Assembly: GCA_964512695.1 (NCBI GenBank)
Contig: CAZEJU010000006.1
Span: 2,591-66,590 of the forward strand
Reading direction: 5' to 3'
Length of the DNA: 64,000 bases
DNA from: an uncultured Gammaproteobacteria bacterium
GTDB taxonomy: Bacteria > Patescibacteriota > Microgenomatia > Levybacterales > UBA12049
Part shown: positions 1,932 to 55,710 of the stretch, one piece after another
Layout: each line of letters begins with the position of its first letter
Numbering within the stretch: position 1 is the first letter of the stretch
The notes under the pieces: model-generated
What the model was told of the DNA's origin: nothing
What the model saw: only the letters and a program-made list of their open reading frames with translations
Databases searched by the model: none
Position numbers and translations under genes: made by a program

Positions 1932-2086
1932 GGGCAGGTAATTTGTAAGTATTCTGTAAGTAGAAGTTATACAAAATGAAAAATAAAATGTCAAACACGA
2001 CAGGTCAATACGCGTTTAGATTGCTAAAGTAATATAAAATAGTAAATATTCTTAATCTTTTAAACGTGATAACAGTAGTTTATTAG

Positions 2087-3052
2087 TTATGCCGATAGCT
2101 TTTTATGAAGCATATGTTTCAGATGATCTATACTCTTGGGATTATAAATAGAGCAGGGTATGACTTCTAATCCTTTATTTTGAAAGATTTTTGATTTTTG
2201 TTTTAAGATACTTTCATCAACGAGATCGACTTTTGTAAATATAATTAATTCTTTTTTGCTCAATAAATCTGAGCTATATCCACTAAATTCATTTCTAATA
2301 ATTGTGTACGTTTTTTCTATATCAGGATCTGTACTATCAATACAATGGAGTAACATTTTCGTTTTTTCTATATGTTTTAAAAATGTTATTCCTAATCCTT
2401 TTCCTTTTGAAGCTCCTTCTATGAGGCCGGGTATGTCAGCAAGAGCGTAATTTTCCATCATTCCGATATTTGGTTCGAGTGTCGTAAAAGGATAGTTTCC
2501 TATTTTAGGGTGAGCATTTGTTAAAGCAGCAAGTAGACTACTCTTGCCAGCATTTGGTAAACCGATAAGACCGATATCCGCAATTATTTTTAATTCAAGA
2601 TGAAGTGTTTTTTCCTCTCCAGGTGTTCCATCTTCAGCATATGCCGGGGTTTGGTTAGTAGCAGATTTAAATTCATTATTCCCTCTTCCACCTTTTCCAC
2701 CTTTTGCTATGAGAATAGATGTACTTGTATTGTTTATTTCATATACTTTTCCAGTCTCAATCTCAGTAATAATAGTTCCTATAGGTACAAATATCGTTTT
2801 ATCCTCAGCGTTTTTTCCAAACAGATTTTTCTTTTTTCCGCTAATTCCATCATCCGCAGTGATTTTCTTTTTAAATCGAAATTCTCTCAAATCGGTTAGA
2901 TGAGTTGAGCCATGAAAATAAATACTACCACCGTTGCCGCCATTACCACCATCCGGACCGCCTTTTGGTTGATGAGAGTTCCTTAGGAAAGATACAGCAC
3001 CATTGCCACCATTTCCAGCTTTTACTATAAGCGTAACATTATCTATAAGCAT
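2087..3052 (-). CDS. obg: GTPase Obg/CgtA
   Basis: The N-terminal Obg fold has Gly-rich repeats (MLIDNVTLIVKAGNGGNGAVSF...GGPDGGNGGNGGSIYF). The G-domain has G1 GLPNAGKSSLL, G2 YPFTTLEP and DIPGLIEGA. Confidence 0.9.
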   Translation of the reverse strand: MLIDNVTLIVKAGNGGNGAVSFLRNSHQPKGGPDGGNGGNGGSIYFHGSTHLTDLREFRFKKKITADDGISGKKKNLFGKNAEDKTIFVPIGTIITEIETGKVYEINNTSTSILIAKGGKGGRGNNEFKSATNQTPAYAEDGTPGEEKTLHLELKIIADIGLIGLPNAGKSSLLAALTNAHPKIGNYPFTTLEPNIGMMENYALADIPGLIEGASKGKGLGITFLKHIEKTKMLLHCIDSTDPDIEKTYTIIRNEFSGYSSDLLSKKELIIFTKVDLVDESILKQKSKIFQNKGLEVIPCSIYNPKSIDHLKHMLHKKLSA

Positions 3053-3216
3053 ACTTGCATTGTACCATGTTTCGCCTATGAGTACGCTTTTGTATATAGC
3101 GGGTAGGTGTAGTGTTTGCAGAATCCCAAGAGATTTCTTGCCTAATTCTTAGCTTCAAAGTGGCAATTGCTACTTTTATACTCTGCTTTGTAGTATAAAC
3201 TTGCTATAATTCGAAT
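3053..3216. promoter_or_regulatory. Divergent promoter region; both flanking genes have an extended -10 (TGnTAnAAT) ending 6 nt before the ATG, suggesting candidate leaderless mRNAs
   Basis: Plus strand: TGCTATAAT at 3202-3210, spacer tcgaat, then ATG at 3217. Minus strand: TGGTACAAT (revcomp of 3059-3067), spacer gcaagt, then ATG of obg (revcomp 3050-3052). No Shine-Dalgarno is present in either case. Confidence 0.4.
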
Positions 3217-4137
3217 ATGAAAGTATTAGCTACAAAAGGGTGGGATGAATATGAGCTTATCGATTCAGGAGAAGGGTGTCGTTTAGAACGATTCGGTAAC
3301 TATAGACTATCTCGCCCTGATCCTGAGGCTATTTGGCGAAAAAAACTACCTCATACTGAATGGGAAAAAGCAGATGCTTCTTTTAGAAAAGAAGTTGATG
3401 GGAAAGAAAAGTGGATTCAAAAGCATTCTTTACCCGACCGATGGAAGATGAGGTATAAAGAACTTGCTTTTTGGGCAGAGTTATCACCTTTTAAACATAC
3501 TGGAGTTTTCCCGGAACAGATAGTGCAGTGGGAGTGGATGGAGGAGAAAATTAAAAATCTCCCCCAAGAGGACTTGCTACAAAGCAGCGGCGAAAAGTCA
3601 AAAATCAAAAGTAATGAGAACACATTAAATATTCTTAACTTGTTCGCATACACTGGGATTGCAAGTTTAGTTTGCGCAAACGCAGGTGCGAAAGTTACCC
3701 ATGTAGATGCATCAAAACCCACTATTGGCTGGGCAAGAGAGAATCAAAAGTTATCAGGACTTGAAAAAAAACCAATACGCTGGATACTTGATGATGCTAT
3801 TAGATTTACTCAGAGAGAAATACGACGGGGAGTGCGTTATGACGGTATTATTATGGACCCACCTGTCTATGGACACGGCCCTCAAGGAGAAAAATGGGAT
3901 TTTAAAACGTCGTTTCCAATCTTGTTAGATTTGTGCAAGCAAGTATTATCCAGTGATCCATTGTTTATACTTATAAACGCATATGCAATTTCGTCCTCTG
4001 CTCTTATGTTAGAAAATGTATTAAAGGATATTACAAATGGGTTAGAAGGGACTATTGAAGTAGGGGAGTTAGCTCTGGAAGAAAAAGGATCAGGCCGGTT
4101 ATTATCTACAGGAATTTTCGGAAGATGGTCAAAATAA
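3217..4137 (+). CDS. Class I SAM-dependent (rRNA) methyltransferase, RlmI/YccW-like catalytic domain
   Basis: SAM-binding motif LNLFAYTGIASLVCANAGAKVTHVDAS and catalytic region GVRYDGIIMDPPVYGHG (DPP[FY]), as in RlmI/RlmK-type 5-methylcytosine methyltransferases. Confidence 0.65.
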   Translation: MKVLATKGWDEYELIDSGEGCRLERFGNYRLSRPDPEAIWRKKLPHTEWEKADASFRKEVDGKEKWIQKHSLPDRWKMRYKELAFWAELSPFKHTGVFPEQIVQWEWMEEKIKNLPQEDLLQSSGEKSKIKSNENTLNILNLFAYTGIASLVCANAGAKVTHVDASKPTIGWARENQKLSGLEKKPIRWILDDAIRFTQREIRRGVRYDGIIMDPPVYGHGPQGEKWDFKTSFPILLDLCKQVLSSDPLFILINAYAISSSALMLENVLKDITNGLEGTIEVGELALEEKGSGRLLSTGIFGRWSK

Positions 4138-6340: not shown

Positions 6341-6898
6341 CTATGCTGTTTTTGGTTCATCTAGTAAAACCCAATTGTTTGATACATGAGGTTCACTACA
6401 AAGATTACGATTAAAACAACATGGTCTTCTCATACCCTTATTAAGTTTATCAAGCATAACATCTATATGCTTTTGGCGTGTCTCAGGGGTTTTAACCGCA
6501 CGTATCCAACGAATCCAATCCCACCGAGCCATTGGTGTAATGTCGTTCCATAAGGCTTCAGCCTTTTGAGAAGTTGCTAAGGATTTTTTTACATCCTCAG
6601 GTACCTCCGGTTCTATCCATTCTTTCGTAGGTTGTAGTGAAACTTGTACGATATCGCCTGTTGTGGCATTCGCAAGTTCAAGCAACGTAGTATTAGGCCG
6701 AAACCAATGGCTTGGTTTTAATCCTGGTCCATACTTTCCATCTGGTTCAAGTAAGGCTTTAAAAGGAACGTTGTTAAGAGTTCCTGAAACCATTACCATA
6801 CCGCGTGAAGGAAGTTTCGCACTTGCGTCTTCAGGTAGCCTGAGAAGCGTCCATGAGTTAATGGTGATTAATGTAGTTTCAAATTTGATTACTGACAC
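6341..6898 (-). CDS. YdeI/OmpD-associated family protein (DUF1905 + bacteriocin-protection domain)
   Basis: C-terminal ARWDWIRWIRAVKTPETRQKHIDVMLDKLNKGMRRPCCF matches the YdeI/OmdA signature. The N-terminal beta region matches DUF1905. Confidence 0.55.
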   Translation of the reverse strand: MSVIKFETTLITINSWTLLRLPEDASAKLPSRGMVMVSGTLNNVPFKALLEPDGKYGPGLKPSHWFRPNTTLLELANATTGDIVQVSLQPTKEWIEPEVPEDVKKSLATSQKAEALWNDITPMARWDWIRWIRAVKTPETRQKHIDVMLDKLNKGMRRPCCFNRNLCSEPHVSNNWVLLDEPKTA

Positions 6899-6926
6899 GA
6901 AGATATTATATCAAAGAATATCGAAA

Positions 6927-7973
6927 TCAATTCCCATATGAAGGTGCTGCCTTAAAAATTACCCACTCAACTGGTCTATCTCTATCCGGCCTTACAGGTT
7001 GCAGATCGGGATACATATCAATAAAGTGTTCCCACCATGGCCTATTATTTTTATACCAATCTACAGTTTCCCCTAACCCCTCACGCAGGGAATAGTGAGG
7101 TTGCCAACCTAATTTCTGAATTTTTGTAGCATTAACAGCGTATCGCACATCATGACCTCTTCTATCTTCAACGTGTTCAATTACATCAGGTGCAAGACCT
7201 AGTCTGTCAACAATTCCTTTTACAATATCAATGTTAGCTGTTGTTTCTCCTGTACCTACACAATACCTCTCACCGGGACTTCCATGTTCCAGTACATGTC
7301 TTATTGCTCGTGCATGGTCAGTCACATACAACCATTCCCGAATTTGCTGTCCATCTCCGTAAACTGGCAGTGTATTTCCTTGAATGCCTCTCACAGTCAA
7401 TCTAGGTATAAGCTTTTCCGGCGCTTGATAAGGGCCGAAATTATTAACGCTATTTGTTATGGTGGCTTCCATACCGTATGTTGCAGTCCATGCTGTGGCG
7501 ATTGCTTCTCCCATGAGTTTTCCTGCCCCATAGGGGTTTCTTGGTGCTGAAGGAGATTCCTCATCAAAAGAACCAGCTATGGCATGCCCAAAAACTTCAT
7601 CTGTTGAAACATAATGTACACGATCCACGCCATTATGCCTGGCTGCTTCAAATACATTCAGTGTACCTACTCCGTTTATCGCTATAGCCTCTGTAGAATT
7701 TCTAATGCTTCTATCTACAGATGAAACTGCTGCTGTATGTACAACTGCATCTGGTCTCCCCATATTCCTTCGTAAGGAAGATAAATCACGTATATCTCCT
7801 TCAACAATTCGAAAATTTTGATTTCTACGTAACTCTGCTATTGTCGCAGGATTTGTCGTTTTGGGATCAAAGTTGTCAAAGCAGACAACCTTCCTCCCAT
7901 CGTTTAAAAATTCTCTACAAACTTGTGAACCCACAAAACCAGCTCCACCTGTTACAAATATTTCAGTTCTCAT
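6927..7973 (-). CDS. rmlB: dTDP-glucose 4,6-dehydratase-like NAD-dependent epimerase/dehydratase
   Basis: Rossmann motif VTGGAGFVGSQ, STDEVFG and a catalytic YxxxK (NPYGAGKLMGE). At 348 aa and immediately upstream of an rmlD-like gene on the same strand. Confidence 0.65.
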   Translation of the reverse strand: MRTEIFVTGGAGFVGSQVCREFLNDGRKVVCFDNFDPKTTNPATIAELRRNQNFRIVEGDIRDLSSLRRNMGRPDAVVHTAAVSSVDRSIRNSTEAIAINGVGTLNVFEAARHNGVDRVHYVSTDEVFGHAIAGSFDEESPSAPRNPYGAGKLMGEAIATAWTATYGMEATITNSVNNFGPYQAPEKLIPRLTVRGIQGNTLPVYGDGQQIREWLYVTDHARAIRHVLEHGSPGERYCVGTGETTANIDIVKGIVDRLGLAPDVIEHVEDRRGHDVRYAVNATKIQKLGWQPHYSLREGLGETVDWYKNNRPWWEHFIDMYPDLQPVRPDRDRPVEWVIFKAAPSYGN

Positions 7974-7974
7974 G

Positions 7975-8850
7975 TTATTTATATTTTTCTAAAGAATGTG
8001 CATTTCGATATGCTACTAACGCCTCTTGCCACGGGCGCATTGATTCGTAGACAGTAGTCATACCAGAATAAGCAGGACGACGAACTAGTGAAGGGAACAT
8101 ATCTGACGAAACCGGCTCAACTACTGCTGGTACGTTCCATGTAGATACTACTTTTTTAGCAACTTCAAATCTACTTACAACACCTTCATTTACGACATGG
8201 CGAGGTCCCTTTTTGTTTTGCTCTATTAAATCGAATATTCTGTTGACAACATCAAGCGTATATGTAGGCGACCCTTGTTTGTCTGTTACAGCTCGAATTA
8301 CATCCTTCCCTTGTGCGAGTTGGCGTAGAATAGCACCAACAAATTTAGTATCTTGCTGTGGACCTGGACCGAAAAGCCAACCAAGCCGAGCGATTAAAAC
8401 ATCGGGAACTAATTCCTTTGCTTCCCACTCTGCTACTAACTTAGTCATACCATACATATTTGTTGGAGTATGGGGTATATCTGTTTCATTATAGCCTTCA
8501 GCTTTTGGCGTACCGGGAAATACTGCGTCTGTTGAGATAAGCACGAAGCGAGCGCCGGATTCCTTGGCAAGCTGTGCCATATTCATCGTTCCTAATGTAT
8601 TAACTCTAAATGCTACTTCAGGTTTTGCATGTGCATATTCCCAATTTGTTACAGCAGCAGCGTGGATAATGACATCAGTTAATGGACCGTGTTGTTTCAA
8701 GTAAGTTCTACATTCCTCTAAATTAGTTATGTCAAATTCTGTAGAAGTCGGTGCTAGCAGGATATTAGGATTATACCTATTTTCTGTTACATTCCGAAAT
8801 TCAGTACCTAATGCACCTCTCCCACCAGTTAAAAGTATTTCTTTACTCAT
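7975..8850 (-). CDS. rmlD: dTDP-4-dehydrorhamnose reductase-like protein
   Basis: 291 aa with N-terminal ILLTGGRGALG and an RmlD-like substrate-binding C-terminal domain. It is separated from rmlB by 1 nt. Confidence 0.6.
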   Translation of the reverse strand: MSKEILLTGGRGALGTEFRNVTENRYNPNILLAPTSTEFDITNLEECRTYLKQHGPLTDVIIHAAAVTNWEYAHAKPEVAFRVNTLGTMNMAQLAKESGARFVLISTDAVFPGTPKAEGYNETDIPHTPTNMYGMTKLVAEWEAKELVPDVLIARLGWLFGPGPQQDTKFVGAILRQLAQGKDVIRAVTDKQGSPTYTLDVVNRIFDLIEQNKKGPRHVVNEGVVSRFEVAKKVVSTWNVPAVVEPVSSDMFPSLVRRPAYSGMTTVYESMRPWQEALVAYRNAHSLEKYK

Positions 8851-31566: not shown

Positions 31567-31792
31567 GTTTGTGAAAATATTTATATCTTCATTTTAGGCC
31601 GTAAAATCAATCTAAACTGGGTTAGCAAATTCAGTTAAAGTGTGAAAAGTTTTTTGACCACTTTAGTATATAGTTTGCATCTTTTAATCATATTGACGAG
31701 TTTGTATGAAGCAGTTAGTATGTTATCTAATCACAGTGTATATATAAAAGTATTACTCAGTTATATCTGCCCAGTAACAGAGTAGTATAAAT

Positions 31793-32055
31793 CATCCGAT
31801 CTACGGGATGGAAAGTTTTTTTTCGCAATATTTTATGATGTTTTTTTCGTGGTTAAAAGGATGTTATAAAACTTGTATGAAAGCAATTGTTTCACCAGTT
31901 TCTCTGGGAAATTTCAGCGGTCCTATAAGTTCAGAAGTGATTTTCTAAGTTATACAAATTTTATTATGATTTTCTGCCCAAAAAATCAAAGAAACTACTG
32001 TATTTATAAAACATTACCTTTCATATCCGAATAGTACGGTATGGAAGGTTTTTTT
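31793..32055. repeat. Pair of about 31-nt direct repeats (hairpin + T-run) in the 530-bp leader of the sipW operon
   Basis: CATCCGATCTACGGGATGGAAAGTTTTTTTT at 31793-31823 and CATATCCGAATAGTACGGTATGGAAGGTTTTTTT at 32022-32055. Confidence 0.4.
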
Positions 32056-32098: not shown

Positions 32099-32671
32099 AT
32101 GATAAATAGAAGAATCGCAATAAGTAGTATGTCTATTCTCGCAGCGCTGTCTCTTATGACTGGCGCAACCTTCGCGTACTTTTCAAGCTCTGCAACAAGT
32201 ACTAACAATACTTTTTCTTCGGGAACGTTGGTGTTAGCACTTACTGACACTACTGAAACAGATATGGCAGCAGTTCAGGCATCATTTGGAGCTACTAACA
32301 TGGCACCTGGGACATGTACTGGAGATCAAGTTTTAACATTAGATAATATCGGAACAGTAGTTGCAAATCATTTAGAAATAGCTGCATCTAATACAGATAG
32401 TGCAATGGCTGGTAAATTAAGAATTAAAAAATTTATGTTTGACGGAACTGACTTACTAAACGGAATAATAGGCACTACGGCCGGTGATCCAGCGTTGAAA
32501 GATCTTAGCGATCTTGCGACAGCAGGATATGATGATATCGGTATGTCCGATCTCAATGACCATACTATAACAATGGATGTTTGTCTAGATGAATCAGCAC
32601 CTGATAGTTTACAAGGGTCAACAAACACTTTGAATTTAACGTTTGCCCTTAATCAACATGTTAGTCAGTAG
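32099..32671 (+). CDS. SipW-cognate secreted protein, TasA/camelysin-like
   Basis: Strong RBS AAGGGGGGTGA. The N-terminus has a hydrophobic core ending TGATFAYFSSSATSTNNTF, the SipW-type cognate signal motif (AYFSD-like). Located upstream of sipW. Confidence 0.6.
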   Translation: MINRRIAISSMSILAALSLMTGATFAYFSSSATSTNNTFSSGTLVLALTDTTETDMAAVQASFGATNMAPGTCTGDQVLTLDNIGTVVANHLEIAASNTDSAMAGKLRIKKFMFDGTDLLNGIIGTTAGDPALKDLSDLATAGYDDIGMSDLNDHTITMDVCLDESAPDSLQGSTNTLNLTFALNQHVSQ

Positions 32672-32762
32672 GTAGTAGTTATTTTGTCTTGCGAGTGGGG
32701 AGTGAAGCCCAACACACTCCCCACTACAAGCGGAAAAGATAGTAGATTTAAGATTTAAAAAT

Positions 32763-33341
32763 ATGAAAAACTTTCGTTCATTTTTTAATACATTCTTTAC
32801 AACCAAAATAAAAAAAATAGTATCGATTTCTCTCCAATCGATACTATTCGTTCTGCTTCTCCTAACAGTAGCGACATTCGTTTCATCGCGAACACCACTT
32901 TTCGGACAATTCCGTTCTATGGTTGTACTTACTGGAAGTATGGAACCTGTTCTTCCTGTCGGCAGTATCGTATATATCACGAAACAAATTGCTTATGATA
33001 ATAAAGATGTCATTACTTTTCAGAATAATGCAGGTCAGAATGTGACCCACAGAATTGTAGATATAGCATTCACGGATGAGGGGACTGTTTATACCACAAA
33101 AGGAGATGCCAACGAGAGAGCTGATACTGCTTTAGTACCCAACGCGAATGTTACAGGTAAAGTTTTCTTTACACTTCCATTTATAGGTAAAGTTATTAAC
33201 TTTCTTAACCGTCCAGAAGGATTTATCAGTTTAGTCATCGTTCCTACGTTTTTCTTAATCGTTATAGAGTTATGGAATATTAAAAAAGAACTTGAGAAAC
33301 ACATAGAGAAGAAATTAATGGATAGATTGCAAATCAATTAA
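32763..33341 (+). CDS. sipW: Signal peptidase I, SipW-type (S26B, archaeal/ER-like)
   Basis: N-terminal TM, then VVLTGSMEPVLPVGSIVYI (SGSMEP catalytic Ser motif), a conserved HRIV region and a C-terminal TM. Confidence 0.75.
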   Translation: MKNFRSFFNTFFTTKIKKIVSISLQSILFVLLLLTVATFVSSRTPLFGQFRSMVVLTGSMEPVLPVGSIVYITKQIAYDNKDVITFQNNAGQNVTHRIVDIAFTDEGTVYTTKGDANERADTALVPNANVTGKVFFTLPFIGKVINFLNRPEGFISLVIVPTFFLIVIELWNIKKELEKHIEKKLMDRLQIN

Positions 33342-33368
33342 TTATCTTCTCAGAGGCTGTTTTACACT

Positions 33369-34061
33369 ATGAAAAGAGTAAACATATTTTCAGCGATAGC
33401 AACTGCAGTAGTATTAGGTTTTGGATCATATACTACTACTTTTGCTCTCTTTAGTAATTCCGCAAGTTCTACCATGAATACTTTCGCAGCAGCCGCTGTC
33501 TTCCCATCCCTTACTCCGACAAGTGAGGAAGTAAACCTTACACCTAGTCCAACTGTCGCGAAAACCCCAACAGAAAATATCATATCTCCTGGAGATATTG
33601 TAATTAATGAAGTGTTTATTCACAATGGAGATAATAATGAATGGGTAGAACTTTTTAATAAAACAGACTCTCCTATTAATGTTTCAGACTGGGCTATTAC
33701 TGATAATGCACACGCCGATAACTTTCCTGATGTACCACCAATTCCAGCGAACGGTTATGCAGTTATAGTCGCAAGTGGCAGCGCTGTAATTCCTTCTATT
33801 CCTGGATCCGCAATCGTAATAGAGTTAAGTAATGATATCGGGAATAATCTTTCTTCTAGTTCAGATCGACTGAGCATAGCTGCTCCAAATGTCGGAATCG
33901 TTGACTCTATGAATTATGGGGCAGATACTAGTTTTTTTAATCCGTCCATCTCTAGTCCCAGTGCGGGGCAATCTATGAGCAGAAATCCTAATGGTATAGA
34001 CACAAATACAGCAGCTGACTGGATATTTGATAGTTCACCAACTATTGGTGGAGCAAACTAA
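33369..34061 (+). CDS. SipW-cognate secreted protein with a lamin-tail domain (LTD)
   Basis: N-terminal signal with TFALFSNSASSTMNTF (SipW-type motif). The LTD signature is INEVFIHNGDNNEWVELFNKTDSPINVSDWAITDN. Confidence 0.6.
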   Translation: MKRVNIFSAIATAVVLGFGSYTTTFALFSNSASSTMNTFAAAAVFPSLTPTSEEVNLTPSPTVAKTPTENIISPGDIVINEVFIHNGDNNEWVELFNKTDSPINVSDWAITDNAHADNFPDVPPIPANGYAVIVASGSAVIPSIPGSAIVIELSNDIGNNLSSSSDRLSIAAPNVGIVDSMNYGADTSFFNPSISSPSAGQSMSRNPNGIDTNTAADWIFDSSPTIGGAN

Positions 34062-34065
34062 CATT

Positions 34066-35013
34066 ATGAAAAAAATACACATTACATTTTTAAAAGTACT
34101 GTCAGTTGTTGTAATTGTTGGCATATGTATTACCCAATTTGAATCCTTTACAGATTTCTTCAGACCTAAAACGGCGTATGCGGTTGGAGATTTAAGTGTA
34201 GATTGGGGTGGAGGAATCGACATCGATATACCGTTATTTGACGTAAGTAATATGATCCCTGGTGATATAGAGTCACGAATCGTTATCGTAAAAAACAATG
34301 CTCCATCATCCCGTCCCGTAGGGGTCAGAAGTAAAAACATTAATAATATTGATACTCTATCAGATGTGCTAACAGTTGTTATAGAAAAAAATGGTACAGC
34401 TATATATGGCACGGGTAGTTCTACAGGAACGAAAACACTGACAAATTTTTTCACTGAAAGCAGTACCATTGATGGTTTACTTTTAAGCCATCAATCGCCT
34501 AGTTCTACAACGCTTTATGAATTTTTTGTTAGTTTTGATGCATTAGCAGGTAATGAATACCAAAATAAAAAGCTTACATTCGATCTCGAAATTGGTATAT
34601 CCATCCCTGTACCGCTGGCATGTCAACATATCGACTTCGGCTTAGCTACACCACTCTTCGGTACTAAAAAAAGTGACAGTATAACTGGTACAGCAGGTAA
34701 TGATCTCATTTACGTATTCGAAGGTGGAGATAAGGTAGATGGAAAAGGTGGAAATGACTGTATAGTGGGCGGAATCGGAGGCGACGAACTAATAGGTGGA
34801 AATGGACATGATGTAATTTTGGGAGAAGAAGGCGGGGACTCACTGGTAGGTGGTGCGGGAAATGACATGGTACTAGGAGGTAATGGAAGCGATACGATGA
34901 GAGGAGATGCAGGAAATGACACAATTATCGGGGAAAATGGTTCAGATGATGCTAGAGGAGGAGTAGGGACAGATAGCTGTGATGCTGAAGCAGAGACACA
35001 ATGTGAGCTGTAA
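34066..35013 (+). CDS. Secreted protein with C-terminal RTX-type (GGxGxD) calcium-binding nonapeptide repeats
   Basis: Probable start is MKKIHITF at 34066, just after the upstream stop; the track start at 34027 overlaps. Signal/TM, then a beta-rich domain, then about 8 repeats: GTAGNDLIYVFEGGDKVDGKGGNDCIVGGIGGDELIGGNGHDVILGEEGGDSLVGGAGNDMVLGGNGSDTMRGDAGNDTIIGENGSDDARGG. Confidence 0.6.
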   Translation: MKKIHITFLKVLSVVVIVGICITQFESFTDFFRPKTAYAVGDLSVDWGGGIDIDIPLFDVSNMIPGDIESRIVIVKNNAPSSRPVGVRSKNINNIDTLSDVLTVVIEKNGTAIYGTGSSTGTKTLTNFFTESSTIDGLLLSHQSPSSTTLYEFFVSFDALAGNEYQNKKLTFDLEIGISIPVPLACQHIDFGLATPLFGTKKSDSITGTAGNDLIYVFEGGDKVDGKGGNDCIVGGIGGDELIGGNGHDVILGEEGGDSLVGGAGNDMVLGGNGSDTMRGDAGNDTIIGENGSDDARGGVGTDSCDAEAETQCEL

Positions 35014-35870: not shown

Positions 35871-35907
35871 AAAAAACCCTGCCCGCATCCTGCGACAGGG
35901 TTTTTTT
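35871..35907. terminator. Bidirectional intrinsic terminator
   Basis: A6-CCCTGCCCGC atcct GCGACAGGG-T7. Confidence 0.6.
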
Positions 35908-35995: not shown

Positions 35996-36496
35996 ATGGA
36001 TTTCTCTCTACTAAATACAGTTCGATTTTCATTACTTTTAATTGTTACTTTTCTTATCTCAAGCACTTCTTTAGCATATGCTTCATCTAAGACTGAGGTA
36101 AACGTGTCAACAAATACAGGTAATAATACAGTTAATGGCCAAACAGTTGAGTCAAAGTCTGAAACCAGAATCATAATCAATGGAAAAGAGTATGTGAACG
36201 ACAATACTGGAAAATCATATGATATTGTGGAGGAAAATAATGAAGGTCGGATAGAAGTTCACGTCAATAGTAACAAATCAGATACAAAAACTCAGATAAA
36301 AAGTAATCAAGGTTCTACCACAACAGTAACCGTAACACCCAAGCCGACAAAGACAACAGAGGTCAAAAGCTCAATGACAAAGAAATCTGATCAAAAAGAG
36401 GAAATGAAGGCTGAAAAGAAAAGTATATTAGATTCGATAAAAGCCCAACTTGATGCATTCTTCTCATCAATTACCTCATTCTTCTCAAAAAAATAA
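35996..36496 (+). CDS. Hypothetical secreted protein (signal peptide; Asn/Thr/Lys-rich)
   Basis: Signal with an AYA cleavage site. Contains NTGNNTVNGQTVES, reminiscent of the repeat family. Confidence 0.4.
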   Translation: MDFSLLNTVRFSLLLIVTFLISSTSLAYASSKTEVNVSTNTGNNTVNGQTVESKSETRIIINGKEYVNDNTGKSYDIVEENNEGRIEVHVNSNKSDTKTQIKSNQGSTTTVTVTPKPTKTTEVKSSMTKKSDQKEEMKAEKKSILDSIKAQLDAFFSSITSFFSKK

Positions 36497-37042
36497 TTCG
36501 TTTTCTTTAAGAATACCCACTACAACAAACCTATGACTGTCAAGAAAGCCAGTACAGGTATACAACGTTATTCTTTTATCCTGAGACTGTTTTAATACAG
36601 AAACCTGATCAGGGGTTACTGTAGCTGTATAATGAACATCAAATTTATATTTTTTATTATCTTCACTCGTAATTATTATTTCCTCTCCTATTTTAATTTT
36701 AGGAAGCTTACCTAATAAGTTCGGCCAATTATGACCATAAAGGATACTATTACCAGTCTCTCCTGGAACAGGGGAATGAATGAGATAAGAGACACCTTCT
36801 GTAGTTGCCTCCCACTCATTATTGATGATTTTTGATTGAATAATAGGTAGTACTATCTTAAGAGATGGAATTTCAATAGATGTGGGATTTGCTATTTTTT
36901 TAGAAGTTAAATTTGCTGTAACTTGGTGTGAATCTGCAAATGATATTCTGGTTGGTTTCGTTCTTTCAATAAACCCATAGCCTGCAAAAATATAGCAGTA
37001 TATTCCGAATATAATAAGGAATAGAGAAATTATTTTTCTCAT
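36485..37042 (-). CDS. Sortase family transpeptidase
   Basis: N-terminal TM, a conserved His region (ILYGHNWPN) and a TLxTC-type catalytic Cys motif (ITLYTCTG). Confidence 0.65.
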   Translation of the reverse strand: MRKIISLFLIIFGIYCYIFAGYGFIERTKPTRISFADSHQVTANLTSKKIANPTSIEIPSLKIVLPIIQSKIINNEWEATTEGVSYLIHSPVPGETGNSILYGHNWPNLLGKLPKIKIGEEIIITSEDNKKYKFDVHYTATVTPDQVSVLKQSQDKRITLYTCTGFLDSHRFVVVGILKENELFF

Positions 37043-37050
37043 AAGGGAGT

Positions 37051-37659
37051 TTATTTTCGATTCCAGCGAAGAAGAAAACCAGCAATGAATGAAACAGTTC
37101 CGATAACTATTAAGCTATATAAGAAACTAATATTACCCGTATTAGCTAAGCTTAGAACTGATTGAAGAGGATTTGTAGAACCAACATTATTTGATGAGCT
37201 GTTGGAACTAGAATTATTCTGACTTGGTGTAGGAGTTACTGTTGATTTACATGAGTAATCACGGTTTTTAGCAACATAAGGTCGAGGATCAAGACCCCAA
37301 GCACTACCATCAGCTATATAAATCCATCCTTCATTTTTTAAAACTTTAATCTCTTCTTCTGTATAATTGGAAGCTTTAAGCCAATTTGTCTGAACTCCAT
37401 TTCCGTTTTCTGGACAGAAACATTGCATTACTTGATCATTACCAGATAACTGATAGACTGTATCACTTCCACGTTTTTCTTCGTATTGGCCAGGAACACC
37501 ATGTGTACCAGTTGCATAATGAGATTTTACTGTTCCTTGCGGATTGACACAGGAAGGAAATGTAGGAGTTGAAGTCGCTTCAGCCGCAGGCGTAGCTGTC
37601 GCAAAGAAAACAACATGTAAAACAAAAGCAATGAGAATAGTAGCGTACTTTGGACTCAT
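37051..37659 (-). CDS. Sortase-substrate surface protein with a non-canonical LANTG sorting signal
   Basis: Signal peptide. C-terminal LANTG + hydrophobic helix ISFLYSLIVIGTVSFIAGFLL + basic tail RWNRK. Immediately upstream of the sortase on the same strand. Confidence 0.5.
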   Translation of the reverse strand: MSPKYATILIAFVLHVVFFATATPAAEATSTPTFPSCVNPQGTVKSHYATGTHGVPGQYEEKRGSDTVYQLSGNDQVMQCFCPENGNGVQTNWLKASNYTEEEIKVLKNEGWIYIADGSAWGLDPRPYVAKNRDYSCKSTVTPTPSQNNSSSNSSSNNVGSTNPLQSVLSLANTGNISFLYSLIVIGTVSFIAGFLLRWNRK

Positions 37660-49858: not shown

Positions 49859-50421
49859 TTATTCTTGTTTGGCAAAAATAAGCAATCGTTTTAAAGATGT
49901 ACCTATTGGTGTACATGTTTGTACGATTAATTGATCTTTATCTAAATTTTCCAAAAATTCGGTTTCGTTAGGCCAAACTTCTTTTTTATCAAAAACAAGA
50001 AAACGATAGTCTTTTTTCTTATATCTTAGAAAAATTATGTCGTTTTTTTGTAATTCTCCTAATCGAAAGAAGATTGTGTTATACCTAGATATCTCCCAAG
50101 GCGAACCAGATGAATGAGCAAACAAATATATCGTACCTCTAGTTCCGGGTAAAGCACTCCCTTTTGCATGTGCAACTCCTTTTTTTAAAGCTTCATTATA
50201 TATTTTCTCATTCCATGGATCGACTTTTTCCACTATAGGAGCATATGCATGAATTTTTGGAATGGCAATCGTAGTACCTTCAGATATGGCTGGTTTGACA
50301 GGCTGGGTTAAGGGGGGAAATATGTATATTTTTATAATTGGATAAAATGTGTAAAGAAGTCCAACTATCGATACTATAATTAAAAAATTGCTGAAATAAT
50401 AAAGAATTTTCGGATTTTTCA
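49859..50421 (-). CDS. Sortase family transpeptidase
   Basis: The track ORF extends to a TTG at 50464; the first ATG (MKNPKILYYF) is at 50421. N-terminal TM, a His region (LFAHSSGSPW) and catalytic LIVQTCTP (TLxTC). Confidence 0.65.
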
Positions 50422-50462
50422 TGAACTTGGGAATGATTCTACAGAAAAGCAGGAAAATTAGC

Positions 50463-50492
50463 AAAAAAAACCCCGCTTGTGGCGGGGTTTTT
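50463..50492. terminator. Bidirectional intrinsic terminator between the LPATG gene and the sortase gene
   Basis: A8-CCCCGC ttgt GGCGGGG-T5. Confidence 0.6.
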
Positions 50493-50505
50493 GCTACAAC
50501 AGAAC

Positions 50506-51654
50506 TTATACTGTTGCTGGTGATCTTCCAGATCGCAGTCTTAATGTCACACCCAGAAAAAACATTGCAATATTTCCGATGAGAAATAGTAAGAGGTTAT
50601 AGTTTCCAGTTGCGGGTAAAATCTTCTGGATTGATGTTCCAAGCACATCTCCACCTTTACCATTACTCGAAGATTTCGATTCTGAAGGTTTGGAGTCAGA
50701 AGTTGACGGAGGCGTAGTGGGTTGCACACCACCGGTAGGAGGTTTTTGCTCTTCTGGCTTTTCCTCACAGCACGTTACTTTTGCGATATTTACATTTATT
50801 GGTCCATTTACAACTTTTGCAAAATAGAAAATATCGCCAGTTTCTATTGTTACATTCGATTTTGTGTTGTTATTTGCTATGTTATTTCCAGTATCTAAAA
50901 TCCAAAGAATATCATTTATAATATTTGCAGTATTATTAACTGTTATATCATTATTTACATTATGAGTAATTGAAGCATTATTTTGCGAAGCAGAACCATT
51001 TCCTTTAATCGAAATAGCATAATTTTTATTAGTATTTAATGTAGACTCTTGATAGTTTATATTTAATGGACCGTTTGTAATTTTCTCTACGACAGTAATG
51101 TTTCCTGTTTTTATATAAACATTTCCGCTGGAATTACTGCTTCCTGTATTTCCGCCAGTGTTAGCTATTCCACGAATTGTATTCGTTATAGAAAGTGTGT
51201 TTGTACCAGTACTTACTGAGGATTGTGTTCCATTAAGAGTAATACTATTATCTGAGTCCGTGCCATTATTAGTGATTGTTGTAGAAGTTTGTCCCACCTC
51301 GCAGCATCCTGCAGTAACTATGTTAGCGTTTCCTGTATTTGTAACGTCGGTGGTGATATCTACGTCACCAGTGTCTACTCGCGAGTCGCCACCTGTCGTA
51401 TCTGAAACCGAGTTACCTCCAGTTGTACCAGAGATAGTAAAATTGTTTGAAGTATCCTGAGTATTCGATTGTGAACTTTCATTTACTTGCGTGGACGATG
51501 ATTGAATATCATTAGTAGAATTACTACCATTCCCTGCTATAACTACTTCATTTGCCAGAGCTAATCTGGAACTTGAAATAAGTATGAACATTACTATAAA
51601 GCCTCGATATATCATCTGATAGAATTTTTTATGAAAAAACATTTTTGTAAACAT
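50506..51654 (-). CDS. LPATG-anchored tandem-repeat surface protein (repeat family paralogue)
   Basis: Signal peptide. Repeat modules (AGCCEVGQTSTTITNNGTDSDNSITLNGTQSSVSTGTNTLSITNTIRGIANTGGNTGSSNSSGNVYIKTGNITV and similar). Ser/Pro/Thr-rich stalk. C-terminal LPATG + TM + RLRSGRS. Confidence 0.6.
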   Translation of the reverse strand: MFTKMFFHKKFYQMIYRGFIVMFILISSSRLALANEVVIAGNGSNSTNDIQSSSTQVNESSQSNTQDTSNNFTISGTTGGNSVSDTTGGDSRVDTGDVDITTDVTNTGNANIVTAGCCEVGQTSTTITNNGTDSDNSITLNGTQSSVSTGTNTLSITNTIRGIANTGGNTGSSNSSGNVYIKTGNITVVEKITNGPLNINYQESTLNTNKNYAISIKGNGSASQNNASITHNVNNDITVNNTANIINDILWILDTGNNIANNNTKSNVTIETGDIFYFAKVVNGPINVNIAKVTCCEEKPEEQKPPTGGVQPTTPPSTSDSKPSESKSSSNGKGGDVLGTSIQKILPATGNYNLLLFLIGNIAMFFLGVTLRLRSGRSPATV

Positions 51655-51706
51655 ATAAAATAACTGGCAGAAAGTCAGTAATGCTACTTACAAGAGGCAG
51701 GGATAT

Positions 51707-54046
51707 TTATTTTCGAAATTTTGGTAATAATATTCTCTTAGTGGCGAAGAAACCTATAAATGGTAGTAGTAAGAGCAGCCATGCCAGATTTATTCGTACT
51801 TTTGTTTTTGTATCTGTTTCTCCAAGTACTGCACTAGCGACAACTGCCTTTTTCTTTACTGTAGGATTTGTTTTAGCTTTGGCTGCTAATACTGCATTAC
51901 TGCTACCACTAGCTTGAGTATTATGCGTTGTTTGTTTATTAGCAACTGCATACGCTTGAATTGGGGTGGGTTGCTGTGTAGGTGTTACTTGAGTTTTTGC
52001 TGTATTTTTTGTTGTTTTCTGACTATTGTTGCTATTTGACTCATTACTATTTGATGGACCACCTATAGCTTGTTGAGTTTGCTTTTTCTCTTCTTGTTTT
52101 TGGCCAGGTGATACGAAATCACCCATCCAGTTACCAAACACATTTACTACTGTCACAAATAGCTTTCCACTACCAACTATATTATTATTCACGAAGTTTA
52201 CTAAATTAGCTACGATTTTCGCATCGCCTGTTTTGATTTGTGAATTTCCACCTGTATTATCATTTGTCTGGTTACCACCTGTATTTGCGCTTAGTTGAAG
52301 TGTATTGTTTACATTAGCATCATTATTCTGGATCGTTGTGTTTGTATTGGATTGATCGACAGAGGATGTATTATTCGAACCAGAGCCGTTGCCGTTATTT
52401 GATGCTGTTATATATCCGTTTTGATCTACATTAAATTCAGTTCCTTGTGATCCTGCGAAGTTTGCTCCTTCAGGCGCACCTAGAATCTTACCAATCCAAT
52501 TACCTGCTTCATTAACAATTACTAACCACATATTACCACCCACCAGATTCGTATTAGCGACATTAAGAACATTAGCATCCACGTATGTATCTCCTGTTGT
52601 TACTGACGAGTCACCGCCTGTGTTTCTACTTGCATCATTATTTCCTGTTTGTGCGTCAAAAACGAGTGTATTGGTTAGATCAGCATCATTATTTTGGAAC
52701 GTATTTGATGAATTTTCTACATTCACATCACTTGTATTAGTTGACCCTGAACCGTTATTTTTATTTGCTACATTTGTTTGTGAACCGCAGCAAGAGTTCA
52801 TAGCAGATTCTGGGAAAAGAATATCTCCTATGAGATCACCAAATATATTAACAACTGCATAAACTACATCTCCAGCTATATTATTGTTCGCGAACGTTAA
52901 AGCATTTGCAGAGACATTTGCATCTCCTGTAGTGATGTTTGAATCTCCACCCGTGTTCCTACTTGCTTCATTGTTACCTGAGTCAGCACTAAGAATAAGT
53001 TCACTTCCGATAGTAGCATCATTATTTTGGAATGTAACATTATTATTTTTAGTTTGTAAGTCTGCGTCATTTACAGAATTACTACCATTACCTGTATTTG
53101 CAACACTTGTATCTCCAGTACCGCAACCTGAAACACAGTTAGCCGCGAAATCCAGTAAAATATCTCCTACGTGATCATCGGCGATATTAAATTCGGAAAC
53201 CATAACTCCATCCACGTTTGTGTTTACAGCTGTAATAACTGTTCCAGTTACATTTGCATCACCTGTTTTTATAGAAGAATCACCTACATTATCAGATGTT
53301 GTATTTGCACCAGATACAGCATCTTGTACAAGTTTCGTATTTACATTTGCTGTATTCACTTGATTGGTTGTTGAGTTGTTTCCAATCGTTGCGGAACCAT
53401 TGTTGTTTGATTGCGTTCCATTACCACTATTTATAATACTTGCTCCTTGGCCTGATCCTGTAGGAGAAGCTGATGCATTTTGATTTCCTATTGTTGCGAC
53501 AGTAGCTGTGCTTGTAGCATCTCCAGTTTTAACTTCAGATGTTCCAGTCTGCCCATTCTGTGCAGTACCAGCTGTAGCATTCGCAGTTGCGGGAGCAGTA
53601 GGCATAGGAATAACTGGTGTCGGAACTGCTGCAGCTTCAGCAAACGACTTTGCTTGCTTTAGCGCTTCACGATATTTTCGCGCAGCATTATCTACTTCAT
53701 CTGCATCTCCATCATAGTCATCATCACCATCGATATCTAAGTTATCATCATTATTTGTTTGGGCCGGAGTAGGGGAAACTGATTGCTGTGTCTCCTGGGT
53801 TGTTGACTGCGTGGAAGACTGGCTAACGCTCTGTTCACTTTGTGTTTGGTTACTTTGTTCATTTGAAACTGATTGCTCAGGTGTAGGAGACACAGCTTCT
53901 TCTGCAAAAGCATACGATCGTGATTGAACGAAAATTTGTATAACTATTAATAGTACTGCAATGTATTTTTTAATATTCATAGTAATCTTAACTTTCTCAA
54001 TAATTTTCTCTTGATATCGTGGGGTGTACGGAAGTGCTCGTATCAC
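51707..54046 (-). CDS. 779-aa secreted tandem-repeat surface protein (repeat family), C-terminal TM anchor
   Basis: Signal MNIKKYIAVLLIVIQIFVQSRSYAFA; an acidic DxD stretch (DDDNLDIDGDDDYDGDADEVD). At least 5 modules, each opening with a Cys pair (NCVSGCGTGDTSVANTGNGSNSVNDA, SCCGSQTNVANKNNGSGSTNTSDV, GCGTGDTS...) and ending TGDANV/TGDTYV. C-terminal hydrophobic helix + KRILLPKFRK. Confidence 0.55.
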   Translation of the reverse strand: MIRALPYTPRYQEKIIEKVKITMNIKKYIAVLLIVIQIFVQSRSYAFAEEAVSPTPEQSVSNEQSNQTQSEQSVSQSSTQSTTQETQQSVSPTPAQTNNDDNLDIDGDDDYDGDADEVDNAARKYREALKQAKSFAEAAAVPTPVIPMPTAPATANATAGTAQNGQTGTSEVKTGDATSTATVATIGNQNASASPTGSGQGASIINSGNGTQSNNNGSATIGNNSTTNQVNTANVNTKLVQDAVSGANTTSDNVGDSSIKTGDANVTGTVITAVNTNVDGVMVSEFNIADDHVGDILLDFAANCVSGCGTGDTSVANTGNGSNSVNDADLQTKNNNVTFQNNDATIGSELILSADSGNNEASRNTGGDSNITTGDANVSANALTFANNNIAGDVVYAVVNIFGDLIGDILFPESAMNSCCGSQTNVANKNNGSGSTNTSDVNVENSSNTFQNNDADLTNTLVFDAQTGNNDASRNTGGDSSVTTGDTYVDANVLNVANTNLVGGNMWLVIVNEAGNWIGKILGAPEGANFAGSQGTEFNVDQNGYITASNNGNGSGSNNTSSVDQSNTNTTIQNNDANVNNTLQLSANTGGNQTNDNTGGNSQIKTGDAKIVANLVNFVNNNIVGSGKLFVTVVNVFGNWMGDFVSPGQKQEEKKQTQQAIGGPSNSNESNSNNSQKTTKNTAKTQVTPTQQPTPIQAYAVANKQTTHNTQASGSSNAVLAAKAKTNPTVKKKAVVASAVLGETDTKTKVRINLAWLLLLLPFIGFFATKRILLPKFRK

Positions 54047-54062
54047 CCCACGACTTTCAAGA

Positions 54063-55298
54063 TTAGTTTGCTTGATGGCCAGTTAGCCATTCAAGAAGAT
54101 CTCCTAGATCGAATGTGAAATCCAAATCTAAGTCGAGATCATCACCATCCATGTCTTCGGCTGCGCCGTAGACATTCATGTTACCAGAATTAGTAGCTTT
54201 AACTCCTGCTTTCGCATTACCTGTCTCGACAGAAGGATCACTTCCATCCCAAGAGGTATTGTCGTCTGCATCGTTATCTCCGGTATCAAGATCGCCATCG
54301 ACATCGTTATCGAAGTCTGAGTCGTTATCTTGATCTACATCGAGATCTTCGTCGGTATCGACTGTGATTTCGCTGTCTGATTCTGTTCCATTACCTGAGA
54401 TTTTAGCTTCTAAATCTTCGAGGCAACCGCATGAATCAACATCTGCCCAGTTAAAGTTAGCCATGTTGTCAAGGATAACTGTTAAGTAAGCATAACCTGT
54501 GTCGACAGAAACTTCGCCACCTGTGTTGTCATCTGCATCGTTGTCTCCTGTTTCAGCATCGACATCGACATCATTGTCGAAGTCTGCATCATTATCTTGA
54601 TCTAAGTCAATATCATTATCGAAGTCGAGATCGACATCGTTGTCTGAATTTGATCCGTTACCAAGAATCATTGCGCTGACTGTACCACCTTCACCATTAC
54701 CTCCTCCAATCTTTGCAGAGTTGTAGTTAGCTTGGTTTGTGATACCTACTTTTACTGTACTGTCGCCTGTTTTAACTGAGACATCGCCACCGGTGTTATC
54801 ATCGGCGTCATTATCTCCAGTTTCAGCATCAACATCAACATCGTTATCGACATCTGCGTCGTTGTCTTGATCGACATCAACGTCATTATCGAAATCGAGC
54901 GTTGCATTGTTATCTGAGCCTGTTCCGTTTCCTGAAATTAAGACTTCAGAATCGTTTTGGCAACAAGATTCGACATCTGCCCAGTTGGAATTGAGTTTGT
55001 TCTCAATATCAACTAAAACAGTAGAGTCACCAGTTTTGACTTTTACGTCTCCACCAGTGTTGTCACTCGCACTGTTGTTACCTGTGTCAGCAGTGATGTT
55101 GATATCATTATCGACATCCGCATCATTATTCTGTGTTACATTAACATTGTGTGAGTAACTGACATCTGCATCGTTATCACTATTAGATCCGTTTCCAGAA
55201 ATTGTGATTGTTGCTGCTGATGCCATAGGTGCTAATGCGTTAAGTAAGACTGCTCCGGTCGCAATAGCTGTTGTTAATCTTTTTGAAAAATTTGTCAT
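54063..55298 (-). CDS. Secreted poly-acidic tandem-repeat protein (repeat family; Asp-rich DxD arrays, candidate Ca-binding)
   Basis: RBS AAGGGGGTGA. Signal peptide with an ASA site. Modules ISGNGSNSDNDADV...DNDADVDNDVDVDAETGDNDADDNTGGDVSVKTGDSTVKV are bracketed by CC/CGC motifs (VESCCQNDSEV, DSCGCLEDLEAKISGNGTESDSE). Confidence 0.55.
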   Translation of the reverse strand: MTNFSKRLTTAIATGAVLLNALAPMASAATITISGNGSNSDNDADVSYSHNVNVTQNNDADVDNDINITADTGNNSASDNTGGDVKVKTGDSTVLVDIENKLNSNWADVESCCQNDSEVLISGNGTGSDNNATLDFDNDVDVDQDNDADVDNDVDVDAETGDNDADDNTGGDVSVKTGDSTVKVGITNQANYNSAKIGGGNGEGGTVSAMILGNGSNSDNDVDLDFDNDIDLDQDNDADFDNDVDVDAETGDNDADDNTGGEVSVDTGYAYLTVILDNMANFNWADVDSCGCLEDLEAKISGNGTESDSEITVDTDEDLDVDQDNDSDFDNDVDGDLDTGDNDADDNTSWDGSDPSVETGNAKAGVKATNSGNMNVYGAAEDMDGDDLDLDLDFTFDLGDLLEWLTGHQAN

Positions 55299-55710
55299 TA
55301 ATTATTTCACCCCCTTTCTTGACTATGATCTCCCCCGACGTACATCGGGAGGCACTTCATTCTTCCGTTCTGTTTGGTAGGAAAGATTCCTGCCAAAATA
55401 AAACGGAAACCACTCACTTCAACCTACGTTAAAATGAATAGTTTCCGTTCTTTTGTTGGACAGTTTCGTTGACATAGTGATTGTGTTTAACGTCATACAC
55501 TATAATTTCTTTCTTTGTCTTTCTGTGTTAGAAAAATTACAAATAAAATAGGCTTACATTCCTCTTACATAAAACATCCACAAAAAAAGGCATTCTTACA
55601 TGGACCACGCTGTTGCGTGATTCGTATAAGAATGCCTCCGTGTGCGGTCAGCCCTTATTTAAAAATCTAGTAACTTTTTAAAATATAAATCAGCTAAACT
55701 TTTTTGTCAA
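55299..55710 (-). promoter_or_regulatory. Promoter plus about 370-nt structured leader (candidate attenuator/riboswitch or sRNA) upstream of the repeat-protein operon
   Basis: Minus-strand sigma70-like promoter: -35 TTGACA (revcomp 55705-55710), 17-nt spacer, -10 TATATT (revcomp 55682-55687). About 35 nt downstream is a 10-bp stem GGCATTCTTA/TAAGAATGCC (55589-55636) with an inner CACGC/GCGTG tetraloop hairpin, followed on the minus strand by T7. A second stem AACGGAAAC/GTTTCCGTT (55402-55449) is followed on the minus strand by TTATTTTGG. Confidence 0.4.

Follow-up and report, generated by a model that had tools for sequence, protein, structure and literature searches.

What would a bacterium of the candidate phyla radiation (CPR) build with a signal peptidase set among a few secreted proteins of its own? 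This question is raised by positions 32099-35013 of contig CAZEJU010000006.1 (assembly GCA_964512695.1) as numbered within the window, the whole stretch of 64,000 nucleotides (nt) that was analysed. Four co-directional open reading frames (ORFs) on the + strand fill the locus (Table 1): g1, a TasA-like protein; g2, a SipW/SEC11-type signal peptidase; g3, a lamin-tail domain (LTD) protein; and g4, in which a TasA-like domain is joined to RTX repeats. CPR bacteria, or Patescibacteria, are believed to spend their lives on the surface of other cells, and we know of hardly any account of their surface organelles beyond type IV pili. The most likely product of the cluster is a TasA-like fibre on the surface of a Levybacteria-like Microgenomates (CPR) bacterium. 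Judged by the sequence elements that each protein carries or lacks, this fibre would rather probably be polar and assembled by donor-strand exchange, with g3 as a donor only, g1 as the polymerising subunit and g4 as an acceptor only.

The peptidase at the centre of the locus is of the archaeal/ER type. It scores 97.5 bits against TIGR02228 (archaeal-type signal peptidase I; cutoff 51.85) and fails the bacterial LepB-type model TIGR02227 (19.9 bits; cutoff 47). It carries the catalytic motifs with Ser59 (TGSMEP, residues 57-62), His96 (THRI) and Asp115 (KGDAN), and there are two hydrophobic segments, one N-terminal and one C-terminal. The closest relatives of solved structure are catalytic subunits from eukaryotes, SEC11C and SEC11A, with no LepB chain among the solved-structure matches. 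The motifs of g2 and SEC11 pair as TGSMEP-SGSMEP, THRI-VHRV and TKGDANE-TKGDNNE, that is, as Ser-His(-Asp) motifs instead of a Ser-Lys dyad. The first-pass annotation, made from the letters of the stretch before this analysis, had called the enzyme archaeal/ER-type and was correct in this, while the SGSMEP that it quoted reads TGSMEP in g2. By its profile scores g2 is of the SipW/SEC11 enzyme type, but is not an orthologue-level member of the Bacillus SipW equivalog (NF046067; 118.5 bits, cutoff 190).

In g1 a TasA-like jelly roll follows a SipW-cognate signal; the annotation had called the protein TasA/camelysin-like and had credited it with such a signal. It passes the Pfam family Peptidase_M73 (PF12389; 34.3 bits, cutoff 22.5) and the model TIGR04088 (cognate_SipW; cutoff 19), the latter with 28.4 bits for the full protein and 32.7 bits for the N-terminal 50 amino acids (aa). 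The TIGR04088 alignment covers residues 13-44, and the motif AYFSS lies at residues 26-30. The TasA equivalog NF046066 is not reached (14 bits; cutoff 450). In the AlphaFold2 (AF2) model of g1, which has a predicted local distance difference test (pLDDT) score of 75, residues 19-37 are unstructured in the monomer (pLDDT <50), and the best Foldseek matches in the PDB are the TasA structures 5of2 (E 1.4e-4) and 5of1 (E 3.2e-4), with probability 1.0 and a template-modelling (TM) score of ~0.35; AbpA 7ueg stands at rank 7. In TasA, the strand donated to complete the next subunit consists of residues 28-38, which come straight after the site cut by SipW (PMC9674648), and the cut predicted after A26 of g1 would be in register with the cut of TasA at A27/A28 (PMC9674648; here and below a slash marks a cleavage site, known or predicted). 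Direct reading of g1 gives A26/YFSSSATSTNNTF39-SSGTL, an extension in the register of the TasA donor strand. We propose that g1, bearing both a putative donor strand and a domain to accept one, is the major, polymerising subunit of the fibre.

The LTD that the annotation had reported in g3 was confirmed by a PF00932 match of 53.1 bits (cutoff 34.3) at residues 73-184 (nt 33585-33920). g3 consists of a SipW-type signal (residues 1-26), a donor-strand-like segment at residues 27-43 (LFSNSASSTMNTFAAAA), a Pro/Thr linker and the LTD, without a TasA domain. The motif ALFSNSASS at residues 26-34 belongs to the stretch A26/LFSNSASSTMNTF39-AAAA, a donor-like segment in the same register as that of g1. 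Within the g3 family, 16 of 23 homologous segments match TIGR04088 at E<=1, the best of them at E 7.9e-8. The link between this protein and the peptidase is closest where the two are one polypeptide, as established from ORF analysis of 43 loci and from public gene calls. SipW and the LTD protein form a single reading frame in 17 loci (L004, L009, L012, L013 at 6733-7995, L015, L016, L018, L019, L020, L022, L029, L030, L033, L034, L037, L041 and L042), and further fusions of this kind occur in L082 (4694-5998) and L083 (2316-3611). In these fusions a basic linker connects the peptidase, with its two hydrophobic segments, to a third hydrophobic segment; the cognate motif comes next, and a Pro/Thr linker then leads into the LTD. 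Extra middle domains are present in L016 and L033. The public gene calls of Curtissbacteria GW2011_GWA1_41_11 have one gene of 431-434 aa between a Peptidase_M73 gene and a g4 homologue; the 434-aa product, from L083 (LCAG01000012.1), matches TIGR02228 (94.9 bits), contains an internal TIGR04088 match (22.1 bits; cutoff 19) with a putative A/YFSD site and has an LTD. A search for SipW homologues returned mostly unfused enzymes of ~190 aa. The LTD protein is likely a true SipW substrate because the in-frame fusions keep the signal, and this Rosetta-stone arrangement provides the strongest evidence for that assignment. By analogy with TapA, TafC and AbpB, g3 is proposed to be a strand-donating initiator or tip.

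g4 is the most composite of the four proteins. The annotation had described it by its hemolysin-type repeats, which are indeed present (HemolysinCabind, PF00353; 67.3 bits, cutoff 23), and had missed the TasA-like domain of ~155 residues that precedes them. Residues 1-39 (nt 34066-34182) are a hydrophobic helix with a long c-region ending in A-Y-A/VGDL, residues 40-195 (nt 34183-34650) a jelly-roll domain of the TasA type that has no donor strand, and residues 197-311 (nt 34654-34998) an RTX beta-roll with four invariant cysteines. The AF2 model, made with 34 homologues, has a pLDDT of 90.7 and shows a helix over residues 2-31, disorder over 33-37, a beta domain spanning 43-178 and, at 197-311, a beta-roll of regular short strands with pLDDT >95. 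Its best PDB match in Foldseek is the TasA fibre 8aur_A (probability 1.0; all E-values are weak, >=4e-3), and the other matches include TasA as a monomer, several pilins of the donor-strand type and block V of the CyaA RTX region. Comparison of the g1 and g4 families by hhalign gave a probability of 97.1 and E 7.4e-11 over g1 35-185 and g4 34-179, and iterated hidden Markov models of each family match the other protein. This alignment begins with g1 N37-T-F-S-S-G-T-L opposite g4 T36-A-Y-A-V-G-D-L, so that g4 A39/V40-G-D-L stands opposite g1 S40-S41-G-T-L; in this register, mature g4 would start at the first core strand, without the ~12 residues that precede it in g1.

The signal of g4 is also of a different kind. 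TIGR04088 matched neither the g4 of the window nor any of 14 homologues (0/14), even at E<=10. Across 114 homologues, position -1 of the cleavage site is Ala in 113 and position -3 is A, V, T or S in all; P1' is V or I, P2' is Gly in 114/114, and D-L-x-V-x-W follows, while the c-region is long and variable (median 13 residues). As this signal differs from the cognate motif, g4 may or may not depend on SipW. Type I secreted RTX proteins are without an N-terminal signal and leave the cell through an adjacent ABC/MFP/OMP system, whereas g4 has a signal helix and an A-x-A site, and no ABC-transporter or membrane-fusion family was matched among the operon genes and the five flanking genes scanned; the neighbours scanned comprise a peptidase S11, EEP, BacA, a sortase, a CarboxypepD_reg-domain protein and proteins without a family match. 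For Tafi pili, it has been proposed that the last strand is taken up by the pilin-like domain of TafF, the terminator or anchor (PMC11821415, PMC12337348). By analogy, we propose that g4 is a TafF-like, acceptor-only terminator or anchor subunit, with RTX at its C-terminus rather than an anchor; transmembrane or LPxTG anchors do occur in relatives of the g4 domain.

These relatives are numerous. An exhaustive search with g4 residues 40-195 returned 717 cluster representatives, 188 of them at E<=1e-10, and the g4-type domain begins near residue 35-45 in all of them. In the best 150 of the 717, on which the following counts are based, no donor-type motif was found, and the C-terminal partner of the domain is RTX in 83, an LTD in 10 (Pfam-confirmed for five) and an FN3-like domain with a C-terminal transmembrane helix and a basic tail in 7. 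At least two of these 150 end in an LPxTG-like sorting signal, namely P0376 by automated count and P0340 (LPITG) by reading of the sequence. Such variety looks like that expected of a terminal subunit which bears an end-piece or anchor and is often fixed to the cell.

The annotation had regarded the combination of LTD and RTX as unusual. It is instead the standard arrangement across Microgenomates and no oddity of one genome. Full-length g4 homologues with 40-56% identity occur in Levy-, Woyke-, Curtiss-, Davies-, Gottesman-, Roizman-, Ames- and Woesebacteria and in one Andersenbacteria metagenome-assembled genome (MAG). In the closest locus, L002 (Levyibacteriota), synteny with the window extends from the S11 carboxypeptidase to a large membrane protein. 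In all 38 loci with upstream sequence, a SipW ORF ends no more than ~0.85 kb upstream of the g4 homologue, either abutting it or with only the LTD gene intervening, and stop and start codons often overlap. Nearly all loci with enough sequence have, upstream, 1-3 TasA-like genes with a canonical GATFAFFSDTETS..N.F.AG..DL signal. With E-values of 1e-6 to 1e-28 and the arrangement present in 38/38 loci, the association is far beyond chance. In L084/L085, a 484-aa protein with Peptidase_M73 and VWA domains is encoded upstream of SipW (1810-3264) and is a candidate adhesin-bearing minor subunit. Several of the related loci (L004, L006, L007, L009, L011, L014 and others) come from third-party annotation (TPA) MAGs titled 'uncultured Gammaproteobacteria', 'Saccharibacteria' or 'Nanoarchaeia', which, carrying this Microgenomates-specific operon, are probably mislabelled bins.

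In the TasA superfamily, roles have been proposed for donor-only initiators or tips (TapA, AbpB, TafC) and for major subunits (PMC9674648, PMC9245690, PMC11821415, PMC12337348), and the proteins of the window can be arranged accordingly into a polar fibre. SipW would cut g1 and g3 after A26 and expose a strand of the form Y/L-F-S-x-S-A-x-S-T-x-N-T-F, the equivalent of the TasA donor strand. Because g3 has this strand without an acceptor domain it could only donate, and would nucleate the fibre or cap one end of it and display its LTD there. g1 would take up a strand, free its own and so polymerise. g4, cut at A-x-A/VGDL by SipW or by a general peptidase, would begin with its first core strand; having no donor strand, the mature protein could accept but not donate and would terminate the fibre, as proposed for TafF. 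Its Ca2+-binding, disulfide-containing RTX roll would serve in cell-surface attachment or as an adhesive end-piece. The processing sites, the exchange of strands, the cell-proximal end and the ligands of RTX and LTD are matters that we infer beyond the domain content itself.

Several observations weigh against this polar model. The g3 of the window scores only 10.8 bits against TIGR04088 (E 0.44; N-terminal 50 residues), under the cutoff of 19. Structural similarity to TasA is modest, with Foldseek E-values of 1e-4 to 4e-3 and TM 0.3-0.46. The long c-region makes cleavage of g4 uncertain, and this protein possibly keeps an uncleaved N-terminal membrane anchor. Either end of the fibre might be cell-proximal, and it is solely from the elements present in or absent from g3 and g4 that their roles are deduced. 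A more ambitious version of the polar model, which we put forward tentatively and with more doubt than confidence, has Microgenomates building a three-part fibre of a kind not previously seen, whose LTD end is a self-processing SipW fusion, with the internal cognate signal peptide being cut, in cis or else in trans, by the fused peptidase domain, and whose acceptor-only end carries swappable heads (RTX, LTD, FN3 with a transmembrane helix, or LPxTG) on the TasA domain. This fibre would be a main attachment organelle of these episymbiotic ultra-small bacteria.

The alternative that survives best is that one dedicated SipW serves three independent secreted substrates, which form a fibre or an S-layer-like coat without donor and acceptor polarity. 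The operon structure and the co-conservation of its genes agree with this, as does the cognate motif in g1 and the g3 family. This alternative was in essence the first-pass annotation, in which all three flanking proteins carried the cognate signal and formed a dedicated fibre or S-layer-like module. On profile search the signal is clear in g1 and is seen in g3 at the level of its family only, whereas g4 never matches. The outcomes that the annotation had named as refuting it, a LepB-type enzyme or flanking proteins without the signal, did not come about for the peptidase or for g1. Operon content and conserved arrangement support a dedicated module of the fibre type; for an S-layer no feature of that kind was found, and we rejected that reading. 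Three independent substrates would also leave unexplained why g4 has a TasA domain without a donor segment and g3 a donor-like segment without the domain. Overall we consider this alternative unlikely.

It is also improbable, in our estimate, that g4 stands outside the fibre, as a Ca2+-binding adhesin or exoprotein exported by Sec, processed by a general signal peptidase and merely co-transcribed. Its classical A-x-A site with Gly at P2' is LepB-compatible (PMC10269814), and the absence of TIGR04088 matches from the g4 family points the same way. However, g4 abuts SipW or SipW-LTD in 38/38 loci, often with overlapping codons, and its N-terminal domain is homologous to the fibre subunit g1. A search with a B. 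subtilis SipS sequence and motif regular expressions found no LepB-type gene in the 64-kb window, which is weakly informative on the genome as a whole.

Much less probable again is that the Peptidase_M73 proteins are secreted camelysin-type metalloproteases and the module a protease/adhesin secretion cassette. The name of the Pfam family suggests it, but the match on g1 is limited to residues 2-95 (the signal and first strands), the best structural neighbours are TasA, as a monomer and as a fibre, and other pilins with strand exchange, and the structurally studied members of the TasA family are fibres (PMC9674648, PMC9245690); the protease reading was rejected on fold. That g1 is a precursor with a SipW-like leader from which a ribosomally synthesised peptide is made, as a Joint Genome Institute (JGI) label on the homologues P0123, P0127 and P0133 would have it, is scarcely credible for a 190-aa protein with a predicted TasA-like beta-sandwich in an operon where family scans found no modification enzymes, and this label too was rejected on fold.

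The polar fibre would be encoded by a probable transcription unit (Table 1). A consensus scan found terminator-like hairpins on the + strand only before g1 and just after g5, and these are the probable 5' boundary and 3' end of the unit. g5 lies directly 3' of the g4 homologue in ~17 related Microgenomates loci, and hence the unit may be g1-g5, with g5 possibly the last gene of the operon. The g4 ORF opens earlier than the ATG at 34066, at TTG 34027. The GC-rich hairpin in the g1-g2 spacer has a counterpart in L008 at 994-1029 (stems of 11-13 bp in both) and possibly is an mRNA-stabilising or attenuating stem-loop after the gene for the major subunit; it recalls the stem-loops that come after major pilin genes. 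The 5' coding region of g2 contains, at 32816-32848, a perfect inverted repeat of 13 bp whose loop is 7 nt long. It is conserved in L002 (6703-6735), where a single compensatory double change and a single G-U pair are seen, and folding of the 211 nt around it gives z = -5.9. This element may act as a regulatory hairpin or as an operator that sets expression of the peptidase relative to the major subunit.

Table 1. Coordinates, in window numbering, of the operon genes, their parts and the adjoining features.
Feature	Position	Strand	Basis or remark
Terminator-like hairpin, 5' of operon, after BacA/UppP gene	31792..31811	+	Consensus scan only
g1, TasA/camelysin-like subunit, 190 aa	32099..32671	+	Peptidase_M73, TIGR04088, AF2/Foldseek
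g1 signal peptide, residues 1-26	32099..32176	+	TIGR04088; predicted SipW cut after A26 (T-F-A/Y-F)
g1 putative N-terminal donor strand, residues 27-39 (YFSSSATSTNNTF)	32177..32215	+	Position homologous to TasA residues 28-38/F39
GC-rich 11-bp hairpin, g1-g2 spacer	32694..32725	+	Comparable hairpin at equivalent position in L008
g2, SipW/SEC11-type (archaeal/ER-type, S26B) signal peptidase I, 192 aa	32763..33341	+	TIGR02228, SEC11 alignment
g3, signal + LTD protein, 230 aa	33369..34061	+	PF00932
g4, TasA-like domain + RTX, 315 aa from ATG	34066..35013	+	HemolysinCabind, AF2, Foldseek, hhalign
g5, secreted protein, 200 aa	35248..35850	+	Two ~88-aa Asn/Thr/Gly-rich repeats, ordinary A-S-A signal
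Terminator-like hairpin + T-run, just 3' of g5	35887..35901	+	Consensus scan only
Large g5-type-repeat proteins	50509-51687, 51710-54082, 54066-55301	-	g5-type repeats

The repeat of g5 follows the pattern ..ISGNGA.S.N.V.V...N...Q.N.A...N....NTG.N.A..NTG.., and neither g5, g6 nor the large g5-like proteins matched a Pfam or NCBIfam family. The 442-aa g4 relative P0293 has an acceptor-only TasA-like domain followed by an LTD into which an Asn-rich repeat of the g5 type is inserted, and thereby links the g5 repeat to fibre proteins. Further along the window, a second surface cluster on the - strand (49862-55301) consists of a sortase (49862-50596) and three large proteins of 400-800 aa with g5-type repeats; proteins of this sort from related loci terminate either in LPATG with a transmembrane segment and basic tail or in a C-terminal transmembrane segment. 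The arrangement resembles a sortase-dependent cluster for pili or adhesins made of an undescribed repeat. Nearer to the operon, genes for a sortase and a 202-aa secreted protein adjoin on the - strand (36485-37042 and 37051-37659), a pair also present in L002 and L008. This sortase scores 85.8 bits against Pfam Sortase and lies below every NCBIfam class cutoff, and the 202-aa protein ends in LANTG, a hydrophobic stretch and RWNRK, a sorting signal of the LAxTG type.

Our literature search found no paper that brings SipW and a lamin tail domain together, none with TIGR04088 in such a context, and, for a link between TasA and CPR or Microgenomates bacteria, a single statement of distribution, in which TasA homologues in Patescibacteria are noted as part of a Pfam distribution (PMC9245690). 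The kind of system is thus known, and its CPR version is undescribed in the searchable literature; its distinctive features are the LTD initiator, the acceptor-only TasA-RTX subunit and the fusions of SipW to its substrate. The locus offers a concrete and widely conserved candidate for a fibre of CPR bacteria. It would also present a clean natural trio of subunit types (donor only, donor and acceptor, acceptor only), with at least 717 cluster representatives of putative acceptor-only terminal subunits with swappable C-terminal heads. The natural fusions of peptidase and substrate connect the TIGR04088 signal with enzymes of the SipW type without recourse to Bacillus genetics, and the notion of a SipW-cognate signal would be refined, the motif being mostly the donor strand of the mature protein and not the leader.

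Among the known systems close to the locus is tapA-sipW-tasA of Bacillus subtilis, in which a dedicated SipW-type peptidase is likewise encoded between secreted proteins with a common cognate signal. TasA resembles g1 as a jelly-roll major subunit of the TasA fold whose N-terminus after cleavage is the donor strand, and TapA resembles g3 in having a donor-like N-terminus on a different beta-sandwich body. The differences are considerable. On the Bacillus equivalogs g2 reaches 118 of 190 bits and g1 14 of 450, the body of the accessory protein is an LTD and not the TapA domain, and the extra acceptor-only TasA-like and RTX subunit, g4, is without a Bacillus counterpart. In addition, relatives of the window fuse SipW to the accessory protein, and the host is a CPR bacterium.

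The haloarchaeal Tafi system (TafA-G; PMC11821415, PMC12337348) is similar in its proposed linear division of labour, with TafC as adhesive tip or initiator, TafA/E as major subunits, TafF as membrane-bound terminator or anchor and TafD as dedicated signal peptidase; relatives of g4 have C-terminal transmembrane anchors as TafF does. In contrast to Tafi, export in the window is by Sec and not Tat, the operon is without a DUF5305 (TafG) partner or a regulator, and the C-terminus of g4 is RTX and not a membrane helix; the comparison is one of architecture. The AbpA/AbpB and AbpX loci (PMC9245690; bioRxiv 10.64898/2026.01.04.697558) also encode donor-strand filaments of the TasA superfamily with minor subunits and tip proteins, often with a type I signal peptidase (SPase I). 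Calcium is reported to play a part in the assembly of AbpX and cannulae, whereas calcium binding here would sit in the RTX roll of the terminal subunit and not in the donor-strand interface, and the peptidase associated with AbpX has ten transmembrane helices, where g2 has two hydrophobic segments. Finally, type I RTX proteins (HlyA, CyaA, serralysin) have the same GGxGxD nonapeptide beta-roll as g4, which aligns structurally with CyaA RTX block V at 29-37% identity. Unlike these proteins, g4 has an N-terminal signal and four invariant cysteines and is without the C-terminal context of a type I secretion signal, and as such it has only the repeat module in common with them.

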